The notes: generated by a model from the letters alone, not told the origin. Shown: positions 4,572-38,470, numbered from the stretch's first letter. The stretch is DNA of 64,000 nucleotides from Methanomassiliicoccus sp. (GCA_033485155.1 JAWQJJ010000010.1:6479-70478); one strand, 5' to 3'. A program made the numbers and translations.

Positions 4572-6092
4572 ATGAATACCTCGGAGATCCTCGAGGGCCT
4601 ATCCGCCAACGAAGCCCGCCTGATGCTGGCACTGAACCGCCTGAACGGCCGCGCCACGCCGGAGGAGGTTTTCGAGGCCGGGGACTTCGGCCAGCTGGTC
4701 GAGGTCATGAACGCCGCATCCTGGCTACAGTCCAAGGGTGCGTTGCAGATCTCCGAGGTCGCCCGAAAGGTGTACTCCCTCCGGTCCACCGATGCGGTGG
4801 AGAAGGGCCTGCCGGAACGTCGGGCCCTAAAACTCCTGGACGAGAAGGGTGGGGAGATGGACATGAAGGATCTGTCCTCTGCCGTGGGCAAGGACGAGGT
4901 GTCTATCGCCCTTGGATGGCTGAGGAAGAAGAACCTTGCTTCCATCCGCAAAGAGGGCGGGAGCACCGTCATCACCCTTTCCGACCATGGCCGGGAGATA
5001 CTGGGCAGGAAGATGGAGGATGAGGCGACCCTCGAGGCATTGGCTAGGGAAGACATGTCCGAGGATAAGCTGGACAAGGCCACTATCGCCGCCCTCAAGT
5101 CCCGTCAGGACCTGGTGGTGGAGAAGCTTGTGGTCAGCCGCACGCTGGAACTTACCGACCTGGGCCGGGAGATGCTGGAGCTGGGAATTGAGGTTAAGGA
5201 AGAGGTCGCCCAGCTCACTCCCGAGCTCATCCAGACCGGCCGATGGAAAGAGGTCACCATCCGCAAGTACGACGTCCGCAGCTTCGCCCCGGCCATCTAT
5301 CCGGGAAAGAAGCACCCCCTGACCAGGATCGCCGACGAGGTCCGCAAGATCTTCGTGGACATGGGGTTCCAGGAGATCGACGAGGAGTATGTGCAGCCGG
5401 CGTTCTGGAACATGGACGCGCTGTTCACCCCTCAGGACCATCCGGCCCGAGAGCTCCAAGACACCTTCTACCTCAAGCGGCCAGCCCGTCTGGACCTGGA
5501 AGACGAGGACATCGTGGGCAAGGTGTGTTCCATGCACGAGTGCGGCGGGGACACCGGCTCCCTTGGCTGGAGGTATGACTGGTGCCGCGAGGAGTCGGAG
5601 CGCGCGCTGCTGCGAACGCACACCACCGTGAACTCGATCCGTCACCTGTGGAAGAACCCCGAACCGCCGGTGAAGGTGTTCTCTCTGAGCAAGGTGTTCC
5701 GCAAGGAAGCGATCGATGCCACCCATCTCCCGGAGTTCACCCAGATCGAAGGGATAATTATGGAGGAGGACGCCTCCTTCGACATGCTGTGCGGCATCAT
5801 CAGGGAGTTCTACGCCCGCATGGGGTTCAAGGACATCCGGTTCCGTCCCGGCTACTTCCCGTACACCGAGCCGTCGATGGAGATCGAGGTCCGGTTCAAG
5901 AACACCTGGATGGAGCTTGGGGGATCGGGCATCTTCCGGCCCGAGGTCACCGCACCCTTCGGCATCAAGTGCCCAGTGCTCGCTTTCGGCCTCGGCTTCG
6001 AGCGCCTGGCCATGCTGCGGTTCAACCTAAAGGATCTCAGGGACCTCTATATCAGCGACGTCGATATGCTCAGAACATCTCCGTTAATCTGA
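4572..6092 (+). CDS. pheS: phenylalanyl-tRNA synthetase alpha subunit, archaeal type
   Basis: Class II core (FRPGYFPYTEPSMEIEV, GFGLGFERLAML) after a long winged-helix N-terminal extension typical of archaeal PheS. Confidence 0.93.
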   Translation: MNTSEILEGLSANEARLMLALNRLNGRATPEEVFEAGDFGQLVEVMNAASWLQSKGALQISEVARKVYSLRSTDAVEKGLPERRALKLLDEKGGEMDMKDLSSAVGKDEVSIALGWLRKKNLASIRKEGGSTVITLSDHGREILGRKMEDEATLEALAREDMSEDKLDKATIAALKSRQDLVVEKLVVSRTLELTDLGREMLELGIEVKEEVAQLTPELIQTGRWKEVTIRKYDVRSFAPAIYPGKKHPLTRIADEVRKIFVDMGFQEIDEEYVQPAFWNMDALFTPQDHPARELQDTFYLKRPARLDLEDEDIVGKVCSMHECGGDTGSLGWRYDWCREESERALLRTHTTVNSIRHLWKNPEPPVKVFSLSKVFRKEAIDATHLPEFTQIEGIIMEEDASFDMLCGIIREFYARMGFKDIRFRPGYFPYTEPSMEIEVRFKNTWMELGGSGIFRPEVTAPFGIKCPVLAFGLGFERLAMLRFNLKDLRDLYISDVDMLRTSPLI

Positions 6093-9225: not shown

Positions 9226-10626
9226 TCACCGGTTCGGGGCCATTCCCAGGTTGAGAGTGGAACTCAACTGGCTGTGAATCTCGCTTAGCACCGAGCCGAA
9301 CTCCTCGCTGGCCTTGGAGGTCTCGGAGATCTTGGAAGCAGCGATGGCCGAGGCACAGCGGTCTGCCGCCACCTCCAGCAACCTCATCTCCCGATCGTTC
9401 TGGGCGTGGGGTGACGACCATACTACTTGGAGCAACCCGATGACCGTTGAGCTGTGCCTGATAGGTACTCCCAGCAGGCTGCGGGCGCCGGTGGCTTTCA
9501 GCGGTTCGGAGACCTCTGGATCGCTCTGGGCATCCTCCACAAAGACGCCCTGGTTATCGCCGATCACCTTACCCGGGAAGCCGCTCCCGGCGTCCTCGGA
9601 GTATCCGCTCGGGTACTTGTCCGCACTGCCCTGGATGGAGCGGGCGACGAGTCGGTCCCCCTCCCGCACCAGGACGCTCCCGGAATCCGCCCGGACGATA
9701 GTGGTCAAGTTCCGCAGCAGTGAGTCCATCGCCTGCTCCGGCTGGACCACGTTGACCGGCATCGCTGCGACCTGCCGGAGGGCGGTAAGCTCCTCGCTGA
9801 CTCCTGCCAGCTGCTTGAGGAGCTGCTCCCGGTCCTCCTGGAACTTGGCCCGGTCGGAGATATCCAATATGCGGACCATGCGGGCCGGGGCTCCCTTGTA
9901 CTGTACATCTTGGGCCCTCATTTCGACGGCTACGGTGGAACCATCCTTGCGGTTGAGCACTCCCTCGTGAGTGGAGGAAGAGTCGGCGATCTTGGTCGGC
10001 ACCAGTCCCCGTGACCCGGCCAGCATGAGCTGGCCCTCCTCTAGGCCCATTAGCTCGGAAGTCGAGTAGTCGGCGATCTCCGCGAAGCGGCTGTTGGCCA
10101 CCACGAGCTTGCCGTTCTGGAATATGGCCGCTCCCTCGAATACCGATTCAAGACCGCTGCCACTCTCCTGAGCCTCCTGAAGCTCCTTCTCCAGGCGGTC
10201 GGCTCGTTGCTTCTCCGTGTGATCCTTGATGAGCGCGTAGTAGTACAGCACCTTGCCGTCCTTGTCCGTCGTCTGCCCGAGGACGACCTGCACCAGAATG
10301 CGGGAACCATCCTTGCCCATCTGCTCCTTCTCATAGGTCTGGGGGTGCCCGGTTTTCCTCAGCTCCTCCATGGCTTGGGCTTCGCGCTCGTGCCATTCCG
10401 GAGGGGTGAGGTACATCACCCACTGCATTCCCCGCAGTTCCTCCTCGGAATACCCAGTCAGCTTGGCGAAGGCTTCGTTGAAGGCCATCGTTCGCCCGTC
10501 CGGATATCCAGCCACAAAGGGCATCGGCGACTTGTCGATGGCATCGGCCAAAAGGTGAACATAATCGCGGAGGGTCCTGAGCTCTTTCTGTGCGCTGGTC
10601 TCTGACTTATCGTTCGAGCCTGGCAT
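9226..10626 (-). CDS. PAS-PAS-GAF sensor protein without recognisable output domain
   Basis: Two PAS-like segments (FNEAFAKLTGYSEEELRG...; ANSRFAEIADYSTSELMG...) are followed by a GAF-like segment (IVRADSGSVLVREGDRLVARS...LLGVPIRHSSTVIGLLQV). Confidence 0.75.
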   Translation of the reverse strand: MPGSNDKSETSAQKELRTLRDYVHLLADAIDKSPMPFVAGYPDGRTMAFNEAFAKLTGYSEEELRGMQWVMYLTPPEWHEREAQAMEELRKTGHPQTYEKEQMGKDGSRILVQVVLGQTTDKDGKVLYYYALIKDHTEKQRADRLEKELQEAQESGSGLESVFEGAAIFQNGKLVVANSRFAEIADYSTSELMGLEEGQLMLAGSRGLVPTKIADSSSTHEGVLNRKDGSTVAVEMRAQDVQYKGAPARMVRILDISDRAKFQEDREQLLKQLAGVSEELTALRQVAAMPVNVVQPEQAMDSLLRNLTTIVRADSGSVLVREGDRLVARSIQGSADKYPSGYSEDAGSGFPGKVIGDNQGVFVEDAQSDPEVSEPLKATGARSLLGVPIRHSSTVIGLLQVVWSSPHAQNDREMRLLEVAADRCASAIAASKISETSKASEEFGSVLSEIHSQLSSTLNLGMAPNR

Positions 10627-10788
10627 TGTTTACGCTCCTTGATATCATTCCGATGATTCGAACGCCACTCTCCATATCAAAGCATGGGGTCAGCGGCGGG
10701 GGGCCAATGGCGATTACAGATTAAGTATTATCCTTCCAAATAGCTGGAATAAAAACCTACATAGCACGGCATCCGTTCGGTGGGATGC

Positions 10789-11622
10789 ATGAGATTATTG
10801 GTATGCAGTGCCGAGGACAACGCCAGCGTGAACATAAGGGACTCTCTCCTGGCGTCCGGGGTTTGGTCGGAGGGTGGAGAGTTCGAGGGCGCCCCGGTCT
10901 ACCGCAATGGTTCCCTCACCATGATCACCGTCCCCCGTCTCCACCTTTTCTGTGACGACCTGGACCTGGCCGTGGAGAACCATCTCGGCACCAAGCCTAC
11001 CGAGGTGGTGTTCCTCTCCCGTCACAAGGCTGCATCCGGGCAGCGGTCGCTGACCGTGCACCCCATCGGCAATTGGGGGAAGGCCGACTACGGCGGCCGC
11101 GAGGGAACGGTGGTGCCAGCGGCCCCACACCTCATGACCTCCCTGCTCCGCCGGCTGAAAAAGGAGGCGGAGGGCCTGGATTTCGAGGTCACCTTTGAGG
11201 TGACTCACCACGGCCCGTTCCTGGACACTCCCACGCTGTTCATCGAGATCGGCAGCAGCGAGGCGACCTGGGGGGACCGCGGCGCCGGCGAAGCCATCGC
11301 CCGGACCCTGCAGAAAACTGAGGTGACGGCCAATCTCGTGGCCATGGGCATCGGGGGCGGACATTATGCCCCCCGTTTCACCGAAGCTTCTCTGGGCAAA
11401 AAGATATCCTTCGGCCACATGCTGCCGAACTATGCCATCGATCTGCAAAACCTCCCCGCCCTGGCAGAGAAGGTCCGAGTGGGCATGGAAGGCAGCGGGG
11501 CCCGTGTGGCATACATCCACCGGAAATCGATGAAGAGGTCCGAGGCCGCCACCATGGCCAAGATCGTCACCGACCTCGGCTACGACACGGTGGACAGCTC
11601 GGACCTGGACGATCTCGGATAA
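10789..11622 (+). CDS. dtdA: D-aminoacyl-tRNA deacylase, archaeal DtdA type
   Basis: MRLLVCSAEDNASVNIRDSLL N-terminus and TFEVTHHGPFLDTPTLFIEIGSSE core match the archaeal D-Tyr-tRNA deacylase family. Confidence 0.8.
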   Translation: MRLLVCSAEDNASVNIRDSLLASGVWSEGGEFEGAPVYRNGSLTMITVPRLHLFCDDLDLAVENHLGTKPTEVVFLSRHKAASGQRSLTVHPIGNWGKADYGGREGTVVPAAPHLMTSLLRRLKKEAEGLDFEVTFEVTHHGPFLDTPTLFIEIGSSEATWGDRGAGEAIARTLQKTEVTANLVAMGIGGGHYAPRFTEASLGKKISFGHMLPNYAIDLQNLPALAEKVRVGMEGSGARVAYIHRKSMKRSEAATMAKIVTDLGYDTVDSSDLDDLG

Positions 11623-34819: not shown

Positions 34820-35983
34820 GTGGAGCGGGTGAAAAGGAGGCGTCCGGCGGCCAGGGCGGCCGCGATGGCAGGCGTCGTGGTGATAGTCATCCTGGTGCTG
34901 CTGATCCCAGCGGTTCAGGCATTCTTCGTCGATCTCATGACCTCGCCGTTCCGGCCCCGTTACCCTGAGAGTGCGACCTTCACCCTTGAGAGGTCTTTGA
35001 CCGTTGACGCCAACGGTGGAAACATCATCAGTTACGACTTCGACATCTGCGAGCCCGTATCCATCGTTCAGAACGGCTATTCCATTCAGAACGTGAGCTC
35101 AGTCCTATATTCGCCCCAGGTGTCGTTCCACGAGGACCGGTACGGATATAACTGGGTGGGGTGGAACGGAACGTCTCTTTCCGGCAGGGAGACCACGACC
35201 TGCTCGGCCACCTATCAGGTAACGGTGCGCACCCACATCTGGAGCATTGACCGCCAATCTTCTCTGGGCATCGATCAGGTGCCCCAGGGGCTGCGGGACA
35301 GGTATCTGCATGACGAATGGCAGGCGACCAATGGTCCCCTCACCGCTGGAGGATACATGATCGACATGACCTCTCCAGAGGTCGTCTCGACGGCCCAGGC
35401 CATCGTGGGCAACGAGACCAACGTGTATCAGGTGCTGAAAGACATCTATGACTGGATGACGACCAACGTGCGGTACTCGGCCGCTGCCTCGGGCGGGGAG
35501 CCACAGACCGCGCTGGAAACCCTGGTGACAAGGAGTGGGGATTGTGACGACCAATCCATCCTGTTCTGCTCCCTGGCCCGGGCCGCTGGGGTTCCCGCAT
35601 GGCTGCAGATGGGGGCACTTTACGTCAGCGCCGACGACAGCTGGGGAGGGCACGGCTGGCTCCAGGCATACATCCCGTTGGCCTCGGGAGGAGGGGAGAA
35701 CGTGACCATCGATGTAGTCAATAAGGACTTCCTGGTCTTCCGTCCCAACCGATTTGTGGACTTCACCGATGACGGGGTCGGAACTCATCTGGCCGATTAC
35801 TATTACACCTTCCAGACGACCTACGATCGGGATTCCTATGCCGCGGGTACACCGGTTTTCAGCGAGGTATACACCAAGCTGAGCTATGAGGAATCGAGCA
35901 AGAAGGTCAGCCAGGGCGGGGTGTACCTCCTGAATCGCGACCTCATGCTGCCCGGTACCGACCGGATCCGACCTCATACATGA
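34820..35983 (+). CDS. membrane-anchored transglutaminase-like (Cys-His-Asp) domain protein
   Basis: N-terminal TM anchor, TRSGDCDDQSILFCSLARAAGVPAWLQ (catalytic Cys context) and GGHGWLQAYIP (His). Confidence 0.75.
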   Translation: MERVKRRRPAARAAAMAGVVVIVILVLLIPAVQAFFVDLMTSPFRPRYPESATFTLERSLTVDANGGNIISYDFDICEPVSIVQNGYSIQNVSSVLYSPQVSFHEDRYGYNWVGWNGTSLSGRETTTCSATYQVTVRTHIWSIDRQSSLGIDQVPQGLRDRYLHDEWQATNGPLTAGGYMIDMTSPEVVSTAQAIVGNETNVYQVLKDIYDWMTTNVRYSAAASGGEPQTALETLVTRSGDCDDQSILFCSLARAAGVPAWLQMGALYVSADDSWGGHGWLQAYIPLASGGGENVTIDVVNKDFLVFRPNRFVDFTDDGVGTHLADYYYTFQTTYDRDSYAAGTPVFSEVYTKLSYEESSKKVSQGGVYLLNRDLMLPGTDRIRPHT

Positions 35984-36368
35984 TGCCCGCCTCCAGGAGG
36001 AGGTTGATGACGCGCCCCAGTTCCTCCTCCTCGACCTCTCCCAGTGCCTGCTTGAGATCCTCCCTGGACGCCTCACCGCGCTCACCGATGGCTCGGACAA
36101 TTAGCGAACGGAGCGCCTGGCGGTCGCGGACCGTCCTTCGCTCTACCATCGGGGGAGAGGGAGCGCCGGGCCTCTCTATGTCATAGACTAACCGCTCCCC
36201 TACCTGCCGGACACCCTCGGCCAGCTCCTTGGGGGAATCGGTGGAAAAATAAACCTTGGCCTTTCGCACCTCGATCCTATGCCCGCAGCGCGGGCAGGTG
36301 ACCCGGGCTGAGGAAAGGTCCGCTCCCTGCACCTGGGTGCAGCGCGGACAGACGATTACTCCCAGCAT
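35943..36368 (-). CDS. zinc-ribbon (DUF1922-like) + winged-helix-like small protein
   Basis: CPRCTQVQ...CPRCGHRIEV N-terminal Cys4 ribbon. The stop codon of pdaD abuts its ATG with no gap. Confidence 0.5.
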   Translation of the reverse strand: MLGVIVCPRCTQVQGADLSSARVTCPRCGHRIEVRKAKVYFSTDSPKELAEGVRQVGERLVYDIERPGAPSPPMVERRTVRDRQALRSLIVRAIGERGEASREDLKQALGEVEEEELGRVINLLLEAGIMYEVGSGRYRAA

Positions 36369-36839
36369 CTAGTATTCAACGAAGACCAGAGCGGCGACGC
36401 AGGCCCCATAGTTGTCCATGGGTACGGAGAGCTCCTCGATGCGATACTCGATGGTCTCCATCTCGATCCCCCGCAGCTTAGCCATCTCGTCCATCTTCCA
36501 TTCCATTATCTCACGGAGGGCCTTCTTGGATCCGTGAATGTGCCCTTCAGCCACGTACCCGCCCCGTCCGTCCTTGCGGAACCCGTAGGCGATGCCGGCG
36601 GAGATCATCTCGCCCTCTCCACCCCTCATCTGTGCGAGCACACAGTGGGTGACCGCTCCCATGGGCAACTCCCTGATGCCCACCTGCTCGGCTCCCACCG
36701 GGAGAACGGAGGAAACAGAGACGATGTTCAGTTCACCGATGCCGGCTTCGAGCAGGGCCTTATCGAAGGCATTGAGGTCGGAGACCTTGCTCACGGCGCA
36801 GCCAGAACTGATGAAGAACTTCTTAGGAACGAGATGCAT
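36369..36839 (-). CDS. pdaD: pyruvoyl-dependent arginine decarboxylase
   Basis: PKKFFISSGCAVSKVSDLNAFDKALLEAGIGELNIVSVSSVLP includes the Ser-Ser self-cleavage context. 156 aa. Confidence 0.88.
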   Translation of the reverse strand: MHLVPKKFFISSGCAVSKVSDLNAFDKALLEAGIGELNIVSVSSVLPVGAEQVGIRELPMGAVTHCVLAQMRGGEGEMISAGIAYGFRKDGRGGYVAEGHIHGSKKALREIMEWKMDEMAKLRGIEMETIEYRIEELSVPMDNYGACVAALVFVEY

Positions 36840-36940: not shown

Positions 36941-37903
36941 TCACTTTCCGGCCTCGGCGCCGCCGGAGCGGGCACGACCGAAGCGGCCGTTAGCGCCCCC
37001 GATGTCCCGAAACTCCCGCTCGAGCATCTTGACCTCACGGGTACTGAGCGCGCCCGGACTTATCGGTAGGAGGAAGATTGAGTCGGTCACCGCCGCCGCC
37101 TCGGACAGCAGTTGAACGAACTTGAGGATCTTGACGAAGTTGGTCTGCGAGACCAGGTACTCGAGGCCGCTGATGAGAAAGACCGCCCCAGAATTCTGCT
37201 CCAGGAACGCTTTTATGTCGCTGTAGATTAGAGGGATGTTCGTCGGTTCCAAAGAGTTGCCCTTCTCCCCCTCGTAGGAGAGCCAGATCATCCGTGCACC
37301 ATCCAGGTCGAAGGCCTTGCGCAGCTTTTCAGGAAACTCCCGGGAGATGCATAGTCCTGGGCTGCCGTGGGCCAGGTAATCGGACATGATCTCGAACGCC
37401 TCGCGTGCGTCCTCCGACTCAATGAGGTATGAGCAGCCCGACTCCAGTTTATACCTGCGGCCAGCCTGGGCGGTAGGGCGGTGCTTACTGACCAGCAGAA
37501 CGTCCGACGGCGTCAGTTGGTGCGTGCACCTCTCGGCGCCCTGGGACATGCAGGCCATCTCAGTAGCCTGGTACCGGCGACCCAGGAGGCCCGACACGAT
37601 CCCTGCCAGGTAGCCGCGGGTGAAGTCGCACTTGCGTCCCCTCGCTGCCTCTACCGACTCATCAAAGGTCACCACGATCTCTTCGGCGGTCGCCTTCACC
37701 ACGCTGGAGCGCGACAGTCCGCTCTCCGACCACAGCTGCGTGAACACCTCGGGGAAGTGCTCCAGGGAAGTGGGTGGAACCTCGAGGATGGACACCAGAG
37801 TCATCCCGGCCTTGAAACCAGTGCGCTCCAGGGTCTCTCCCGCATGCTCCTCGGCAAGTAGCTCCAGCTCTTCCCGGAGGGAGAACAGCGCGGCTGCGGG
37901 CAT
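36941..37903 (-). CDS. V4R domain + DUF835 domain protein
   Basis: The N-terminal half has the V4R signature (CDFTRGYLAGIVSGLLGRRYQATEMACMSQGAERCTHQL). The C-terminal half is DUF835-like (SYLIESEDAREAFEIM...GLCISREFPEKLRKAF...IWLS...VFLISGLEYLV). Confidence 0.65.
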   Translation of the reverse strand: MPAAALFSLREELELLAEEHAGETLERTGFKAGMTLVSILEVPPTSLEHFPEVFTQLWSESGLSRSSVVKATAEEIVVTFDESVEAARGRKCDFTRGYLAGIVSGLLGRRYQATEMACMSQGAERCTHQLTPSDVLLVSKHRPTAQAGRRYKLESGCSYLIESEDAREAFEIMSDYLAHGSPGLCISREFPEKLRKAFDLDGARMIWLSYEGEKGNSLEPTNIPLIYSDIKAFLEQNSGAVFLISGLEYLVSQTNFVKILKFVQLLSEAAAVTDSIFLLPISPGALSTREVKMLEREFRDIGGANGRFGRARSGGAEAGK

Positions 37904-37917
37904 GACGAAGAAAGGGT

Positions 37918-38430
37918 TCAGGGGGACACCCCCAAGATCTGCCTGCCGAGACGCTCGAACGCGTCCTGGACCCCAGCCCCGGTCTTAGCGCTGGTGTACA
38001 GAAAATCGTTGCCGAGGACCTTCTTGACCTCGCCCACCTCCTCGGCGCCCAAGGATGAGGGCAGGTCGGCCTTGTTCACAAGTGGGATGAGCGGCACGGT
38101 TCCGGTGACCTCCTCGAGGTCACGCTTCCACTCCGGCAGTTTCAACAGCGTATCCGGCCGGGAGTTGTCGCATACTAGGAGGGCGCCGTTAGCGCCGTTG
38201 TAATAGGCGCCATGGAGCGCCTTCTGGGATTTCTGACCAAGGATGTCCCATATCATGAGCGTTAGTTGGACATCATCAAGCTCGATTACTTTCTTGGATA
38301 CCTTGGTACCGAAGCTCATAATATAATTGTCACTGAAGCTATTGAGGACATACCTGCCTATCAGGCTCGTCTTTCCGACTCCCCCGTCCCCAAGGAGGCA
38401 GACCTTTCTGATAATTTTCTTCTTCTCCAT
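37918..38430 (-). CDS. Ras-superfamily (Rab/Ras-like) small GTPase
   Basis: G1 GDGGVGKTS, G3 WDILGQ, G4 NKAD, G5 TSAKTG; 170 aa. 14 nt upstream of the V4R-DUF835 gene. Confidence 0.85.
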   Translation of the reverse strand: MEKKKIIRKVCLLGDGGVGKTSLIGRYVLNSFSDNYIMSFGTKVSKKVIELDDVQLTLMIWDILGQKSQKALHGAYYNGANGALLVCDNSRPDTLLKLPEWKRDLEEVTGTVPLIPLVNKADLPSSLGAEEVGEVKKVLGNDFLYTSAKTGAGVQDAFERLGRQILGVSP

Positions 38431-38457: not shown

Positions 38458-38470
38458 CTATATAATATTT
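38458..38470. promoter_or_regulatory. strong TATA-like box (ctatataatattt)
   Basis: About 30 nt upstream of the GTPase ATG (minus strand), implying a near-leaderless mRNA. It is nearly palindromic, so it could also fire rightward. Confidence 0.4.

Follow-up and report, generated by a model that had tools for sequence, protein, structure and literature searches.

We analysed a pair of adjacent genes in a 64,000-nucleotide stretch of DNA from Methanomassiliicoccus sp. (GCA_033485155.1, JAWQJJ010000010.1), hereafter called the window, which corresponds to positions 6479-70478 of contig C10 in a genome of 2.8 Mb with a completeness of 99.96%. Coordinates are positions in the window unless another contig or locus is named. 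The first gene encodes a Rab-like small GTPase and the second a protein with an N-terminal V4R domain and a C-terminal DUF835 domain, referred to here as the partner. Both open reading frames lie where an earlier inspection of the DNA (the sequence-only reading) had placed them, but they are on the minus strand. The GTPase and the V4R-DUF835 protein are very probably a functional pair that forms one signalling module, because they are inherited together, remain adjacent through inversion and in changed flanks, and are related to fusion proteins. The features of the locus are as follows.

38459-38465, minus strand: TATA-like box TTATATA, likely promoter of the pair (read from the sequence)
37918-38430, minus strand: GTPase gene, 170 amino acids (open reading frame and profile matches)
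37904-37921, minus strand: gene junction with the probable true start of the partner gene (translation and comparison with relatives)
36941-37903, minus strand: partner gene (V4R-DUF835), 320 amino acids as first delimited (open reading frame and profile matches)
37499-37903, minus strand: V4R domain with N-terminal helices, partner residues 1-135 (Pfam, fold matches, aligned zinc residues)
37439-37498, minus strand: interdomain linker, partner residues 136-155 (predicted local distance difference test score, pLDDT, of 69-74; variable alignment columns)
37004-37438, minus strand: DUF835 domain, partner residues 156-300 (Pfam, fold matches, Walker A loop absent)
36941-37003, minus strand: C-terminal tail of the partner and stop codon (pLDDT 42-54; poorly conserved in the alignment)

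The GTPase, its partner and the gene junction

The GTPase matches the Pfam family Ras (PF00071) with an E-value of 1.1e-30 (106.8 bits, cut-off 21.6), and also Pfam Roc (7.6e-25) and the NCBIfam model small_GTP (TIGR00231; 2e-18, 66.7 bits, cut-off 42.5). The five G boxes in Ras-superfamily form that had been quoted for it are present (G1 GDGGVGKT, switch-I Ser39, G3 WDILGQ, G4 NKAD and G5 SAK). Their core residues G14, G19-K20-T21, D62, G65-Q66, N119-K120, D122 and S147-A148 are invariant in 29 orthologues, among which the switch-I position is either Ser or Thr. Since the G-box core and the catalytic Gln66 do not vary, the protein looks, from its motifs, like a working, hydrolysis-competent switch. 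The closest solved structure is the Thorarchaeota Rab 7ezb (8.8e-26), followed by Rab21, Rab7, Rab2 and Rab8 (about 1e-22). The first 50 solved-structure matches are all Thor-Rab or Rab/Ypt/Sec4 proteins, and the Ran homologue Gsp1 ranks 51. In addition, the GTPase carries YYxGA and LVxD motifs, which we take to resemble RabF4 and RabF5. No C-terminal prenylation cysteine is present in the last 80 residues, which end in GRQILGVSP, and the orthologues are likewise devoid of it; therefore the protein cannot be prenylated in the Rab manner. Thus, its description as a eukaryote-like Ras/Rab-type GTPase holds for the sequence similarity to Rabs but not for their prenylation cysteine. It is the sole Ras-family gene found in the source genome. 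A Roadblock/LC7 partner is not encoded next to it, and the two Robl_LC7 matches of the genome lie on contigs C4 and C3.

The partner was described as an N-terminal V4R domain followed by a C-terminal DUF835 domain, and this agrees with two profiles that score above their cut-offs as well as with the folds of both halves. Residues 84-131 match Pfam V4R (PF02830; 2.3e-10, 40.9 bits, cut-off 31) and residues 166-298 match Pfam DUF835 (PF05763; 1.7e-28, 99.6 bits, cut-off 33.1), and the NCBIfam model of MsvR hits the partner over the V4R part of MsvR (4e-07). An AlphaFold model computed with 43 homologues as input (pLDDT 88, predicted template modelling score, pTM, 0.64) consists of two domains and a low-confidence linker. 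In Foldseek searches the N-terminal domain retrieved the phenol-sensor domains of PoxR, MopR and DmpR (E 4e-08 to 1e-06; template modelling (TM) score about 0.57 for PoxR/MopR), and Bet3/TRAPPC3 proteins including one from Thorarchaeota (TM 0.64-0.68). The N-terminal module is of the XylR_N+V4R sensor type. Residues C92, E115, C118 and C126 are at least 90% conserved in the family alignment and align with C155, E178, C181 and C189 of MopR. In MopR, the three cysteines are zinc ligands, and the site was described as structural (PMC9556785). The V4R domain of the partner is accordingly predicted, by alignment, to carry a Cys/Glu/Cys/Cys zinc site of the XylR/MopR type.

The C-terminal domain matches RecA/KaiC-type proteins, namely FlaH (4yds), PH0284 (2dr3), EssC and FtsK. 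A Walker A motif GxxxxGK[ST] is absent from the DUF835 domain of the partner, where strand 158-162 is followed by ESEDAREAF. Galperin et al. (2018, PMC5847659) described DUF835 as an inactivated KaiC (iKaiC) and listed it among the output domains of response regulators. One arginine, R188, is invariant in the partner and is also present in a family of GTPase-DUF835 fusions; it looks like a general DUF835 residue.

The 14 nucleotides between the annotated genes (37904-37917) had been taken for a spacer and are probably coding. Read in the frame of the partner, they give the conserved residues NPFFV, and they are preceded by a CTG (37921-37919) that overlaps the GTPase stop codon TGA (37920-37918) to give CTGA. 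The N-terminus of the partner family is MNPFFVMP, and the same junction reads ATGA, GTGA or TTGA in relatives, with start and stop overlapping by four bases. Between the source genome and three relatives that share the CTG, the NPFFV codons differ by synonymous changes only, and in two relatives the internal ATG is missing. Because the codons in the gap are in frame and conserved with synonymous changes only, and because the relatives have overlapping starts at the same place, the partner most likely starts at an unusual CTG, and the two genes would overlap and be translationally coupled. A TATA box had been proposed about 30 nucleotides upstream of the GTPase; the sequence TTATATA is indeed found 29-35 nucleotides before its ATG. 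It is the likely promoter of the pair, and the leader would then be very short.

Linkage of the GTPase and V4R-DUF835 genes

In a neighbourhood survey, adjacency was found across the order and across the phylum. The arrangement thus extends well beyond the source genome, and a pair confined to this genome, by which the sequence-only reading would have been refuted, is not what was observed. Within the order Methanomassiliicoccales, 151 genomes were surveyed and the GTPase, called at E <= 1e-10, was found in 69. In 68 of these 69 genomes the partner is the next gene downstream, on the same strand of the same contig; this and the other pair counts come from six-frame matches in sampled, related genomes and hence do not represent independent events. 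In the remaining genome, the partner sits at the end of a different contig, starting at base 4. Full-length partners without the GTPase were not seen among the 151 genomes, and in one family of the order both the GTPase (0 of 64 genomes) and the full-length partner are missing. Furthermore, 80 named loci encode a relative of the partner, and the GTPase is directly upstream in all 77 that could be evaluated. Across the phylum (301 Thermoplasmatota genomes), 19 genomes outside the order harbor a full-length partner with 30-39% identity, in every case (19/19) beside a GTPase with 45-52% identity. The order of the genes is inverted, with the partner preceding the GTPase, in five genomes of two families, and two genomes show the arrangement GTPase-partner-GTPase. 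From lineage to lineage, the distant pairs have unrelated flanking genes (fumarase, aminotransferase, a YchF-like GTPase and an ABC ATPase).

Fusion proteins provide a second type of linkage. One member of the phylum encodes a 415-amino acid fusion with Ras at residues 13-174 and DUF835 at residues 274-409, and a large protein collection contains 31 clusters of GTPase-linker-DUF835 fusions of 316-432 amino acids that are 35-100% identical. The linker is variable, gap-rich and disordered and contains no V4R domain. A degenerate V4R was considered for the middle of the fusions and rejected, as this region is a variable low-complexity linker instead. In a GTPase tree restricted to archaeal sequences, most fusions fall into one supported clade and one lies apart; at least two changes are required for the fusion label on this tree. 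The backbone of the tree was not resolved and the GTPases of the pairs were not recovered as one clade; it thus speaks neither for nor against a single origin of the pair GTPases. One fusion protein (P0250) is labelled [Eubacterium] cellulosolvens by NCBI. As all its relatives are archaeal, the assembly may be bacterial and the contig itself of archaeal origin.

V4R is also found next to the GTPase on its own. In marine Poseidoniia/Thalassarchaeaceae, the GTPase gene, a gene for a 149-amino acid stand-alone V4R protein and a gene for a tetratricopeptide repeat (TPR) protein lie in a row. The V4R protein was identified by hhalign (98%, E 7e-14). Given the DUF835 fusions and this V4R-only form, the DUF835 half and the V4R half of the partner each have a link of their own to GTPases of this kind. 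The Poseidoniia (Marine Group II/III) genomes concerned are 1.0-1.4 Mb in size and have a single Rab-like GTPase before the V4R and TPR genes, and related lineages have TPR-GTPase fusions (L012-L014). The Poseidoniia loci are as follows.

L018, 3328-5239, plus strand: GTPase-V4R-TPR genes
L019, 3379-5298, plus strand: GTPase-V4R-TPR genes
L107-L109 and L112: further GTPase-V4R-TPR loci

In a metagenome-assembled genome of a lake-water archaeon (L113, VGTL01000040.1, 2614-4522), matches to V4R-DUF835, to the alignment of the GTPase-DUF835 fusions and to an extra V4R overlap or abut within 2 kb. In addition, some Thermoplasmatota genomes of 3-5.5 Mb (for example G164, G190, G267, G295 and G318) have at least 11 matches to Rab-like GTPases and up to 27 candidates at first look, a large expansion outside the Asgard archaea. 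A 171-amino acid open reading frame before a second V4R-DUF835 copy in one of these genomes (G295) was inspected as a possible further GTPase and is not one.

Potentially, the adjacency of the two genes might be inherited synteny with no direct functional or physical link between the products, an explanation that we regard as very unlikely. The evidence is drawn mostly from a single phylum, where vertical descent would by itself keep gene order, and a neighbouring gene couple behaves in this way. In the source genome, the pair has a divergent M16 peptidase gene as its upstream neighbour and is followed downstream by pdaD, the gene of a pyruvoyl arginine decarboxylase, and a DUF5817 zinc-ribbon gene. 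The pdaD and DUF5817 genes (35943-36839, minus strand) abut, follow the pair in most Methanomassiliicoccales and are syntenic with it across the order without depending on the pair. The GTPase and its partner, however, persist together where all other neighbours have changed and through inversion of their order, are present or missing together, and overlap by four bases, and GTPase and DUF835 are fused in the 31 clusters mentioned above. The pdaD gene and the DUF5817 zinc-ribbon/winged-helix gene were also considered as members of the module and rejected, since they are present in genera that have no pair (4/4 and 6/6 genomes) and are absent from the annotated loci of the distant pairs. In a second Thermoplasmata lineage, a DUF5817 zinc-ribbon gene directly follows the partner, and pdaD is absent.

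Possible modes of action of the module

Nine DUF835 proteins are encoded in the source genome. The domain is always C-terminal, also occurs alone, and is combined with a receiver domain (REC), with V4R, with an isoleucyl-tRNA synthetase carrying a helix-hairpin-helix, and with a DnaA-like ATPase. The isoleucyl-tRNA synthetase (TIGR00392, 964 bits) has 1395 amino acids and ends in the helix-hairpin-helix and DUF835 (G000, contig C7; L104, 3704-7891, minus strand). DUF835-bearing frames of 1390-1430 amino acids recur across the order, including genomes that have no GTPase. The constant C-terminal position behind varied domains suggests that DUF835 is a shared output or docking domain. It is unlikely that the one GTPase is a hub for all nine proteins, as paralogues including the isoleucyl-tRNA synthetase fusion persist without it. 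At least ten KaiC-like ATPases are encoded in the genome as well. Two further DUF835 loci of the same genome were recorded. One encodes a 737-amino acid archaeal protein with a bacterial-type DnaA/Hda-like AAA+ domain and a C-terminal DUF835 (contig C1; L105, 3348-5561, minus strand). The other comprises three stand-alone DUF835 genes in 7 kb of contig C2, at about 448-455 kb (L103, 4688-5239 on the plus strand, 5355-5897 and 10565-11038 on the minus strand), beside genes for a large STAND-type ATPase with TPR repeats, a pyridoxal phosphate enzyme and ribonucleotide reductase.

We consider it reasonably likely that the two genes encode one module, in which a Rab-like GTP switch works with a dedicated partner, whose V4R sensor would be stabilised by zinc and whose KaiC-like DUF835 domain would be nucleotide-dead. 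As the GTPase is repeatedly fused to DUF835, it would touch the partner through this domain. The V4R-DUF835 protein would then be an effector or integrator with two inputs on DUF835, one from the GTPase in trans (or fused) and one from V4R in cis. It is tempting to speculate that the state of DUF835 is set jointly by the switch, depending on whether it carries GTP, and by V4R, in response to a ligand or a thiol/redox signal. We lean toward such an effector or integrator role because DUF835 looks like a common C-terminal output or docking domain.

Several points weigh against this interpretation. DUF835 paralogues persist in genomes that have no GTPase, so that DUF835 in general does not need one. 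A few members of the partner family have lost cysteines of the zinc site and, as the corresponding site of MopR is structural, the zinc site of V4R alone is not proof of ligand or redox sensing. Neither the model of the V4R-DUF835 protein (pTM 0.64) nor that of a natural GTPase-DUF835 fusion shows confident packing of the domains. In the latter (pLDDT 80, pTM 0.51) the linker and switch I are disordered, and it was discarded as a stand-in for the GTPase/partner complex since it gives no interface information. Finally, we infer the binding of the GTPase to its partner from linkage and fusions, and the direction of signalling from the logic of domain order only.

It is also possible, if rather unlikely, that V4R-DUF835 acts upstream of the GTPase as a guanine nucleotide exchange factor (GEF) or GTPase-activating protein (GAP). 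In this case, the ligand or redox state of V4R would determine which nucleotide the switch carries, and the switch would then act on effectors encoded elsewhere, following a TRAPP-like or MglB-like logic. A GTPase with a normal catalytic Gln is expected to need both a GAP and a GEF, and its sole conserved neighbour bears a sensor domain, as inputs typically do; moreover, MglA-MglB provides a precedent for a regulator encoded beside its own GTPase. For an activating role in hydrolysis, however, no conserved arginine or catalytic finger could be assigned, given that R188 looks general to DUF835. With respect to exchange, Bet3 is a subunit of TRAPP, an exchange factor of eukaryotic Rabs, and the V4R domain has the Bet3/TRAPPC3 fold (TM 0.64-0.68) and follows the GTPase as a stand-alone protein in Poseidoniia. 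The exchange site of TRAPP, on the other hand, is built mainly by longin subunits. No longin-type subunit (Bet5/Trs23/Trs20) is encoded in the two-gene operon, the rest of the genome not having been searched for longins. In addition, the widespread fusions unite the GTPase with DUF835 and omit V4R, which argues for DUF835 as the point of contact.

A further proposal concerns the origin of the link between V4R and Rab-like proteins in Thermoplasmatota. It may be an old partnership of regulator and GTPase that shares descent with TRAPP and Rab, in which V4R aids nucleotide exchange. We regard this as unlikely; if it were true, the pairing of a Bet3 fold with a Rab would predate eukaryotes and extend beyond the Asgard archaea.

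The conserved Cys/Glu/Cys/Cys zinc site of the partner raises the question of whether the GTPase, instead of being a signalling switch, helps with assembly or metal insertion at this site or in an oligomer of V4R-DUF835. Prokaryotic GTPases that deliver metals to the product of a neighbouring gene are known (HypB, UreG and CobW of the G3E family). These helpers belong to G3E, whereas the GTPase described here is Ras/Rab-like. Furthermore, the fusions have no V4R domain and therefore no zinc site, and other V4R proteins in the source genome have no such GTPase. A helper function is therefore highly improbable.

Relation to known systems and implications

Single-domain Ras-superfamily GTPases encoded beside a dedicated, co-inherited partner that is not a GTPase are known from MglA-MglB, the actinobacterial conservon CvnA-D and Rup group 1 (PMC4316618). 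The module in Methanomassiliicoccales resembles them in this respect. In contrast to the MglA-MglB type, the partner here consists of V4R and a dead KaiC-like domain instead of Roadblock/LC7, and the G3 box reads DxxGQ. The survey of prokaryotic Ras-superfamily GTPases by Wuichet and Sogaard-Andersen (2014, PMC4316618) mentions neither V4R nor KaiC, and describes an archaeal Rup group without conserved neighbours. Single Rab-like proteins were listed, without context, for a 'Thermoplasmatales archaeon' and Aciduliprofundum (Surkont and Pereira-Leal, 2016, PMC4915359).

Asgard and eukaryotic Rabs have the same G boxes and the highest sequence similarity among solved structures. The GTPase of the pair differs from them in that it has no prenylation cysteine, belongs to a lineage that is not Asgard, and is linked to V4R as a rule. 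According to Tran et al. (2024, PMC10933270), the GTPase genes of Asgard archaea generally do not share operons with genes for Roadblock, longin or TRAPPC3 proteins, and the missing operon links were named as the obstacle to matching these GTPases with their regulators. In agreement with this, none of 22 Asgard GTPase loci has a V4R or DUF835 gene within 3 kb. Nothing so far demonstrates a membrane or trafficking role for the module.

The N-terminal domain of the partner shares the V4R/Bet3 fold with TRAPP Bet3/TRAPPC3, and it is tied genetically to a Rab-like GTPase as TRAPP is tied functionally to Rabs. In contrast to TRAPP, it resembles bacterial sensors of the XylR/MopR type in its zinc site and N-terminal helices, and the fusions use DUF835 and not V4R. 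V4R was linked to Bet3 previously, with no mention of GTPases (Podar et al., 2008, PMC2253512). The sensors PoxR, MopR and DmpR and the V4R domain of MsvR are similar to the partner by best fold matches, aligned zinc ligands and the match to the MsvR model, whereas the output here is DUF835 together with a GTPase, and not an AAA+/sigma-54 or DNA-binding domain. Finally, response regulators of the REC-DUF835 type, one of which is encoded in the source genome, have the same C-terminal DUF835 behind a switch or sensor domain (PMC5847659), but the inputs in the pair are V4R in cis and the GTPase in trans (or fused) instead of a phosphorylated receiver. GTPases are not mentioned in the description of these regulators (Galperin et al., 2018, PMC5847659).

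The sequence-only reading knew of no V4R-DUF835 partner for a small GTPase. Likewise, no published description of the pairing was found in the searchable literature, outside which much subscription literature lies. V4R-DUF835 is a new type of partner for systems of a kind already known, in which a small GTPase has a cognate partner. Almost no partners are known for archaeal Rab/Ras-like GTPases, and here there is one clear, phylum-wide partner, which ranges from methanogen relatives of gut and sediment through marine Poseidoniia. The pair consists of two small soluble proteins and is therefore a concrete object for expression and testing. It ties the Bet3 fold of eukaryotic TRAPP genetically to a Rab-like switch outside the Asgard archaea, and it provides a first way to approach the function of DUF835, a 'dead KaiC' domain that is widespread.

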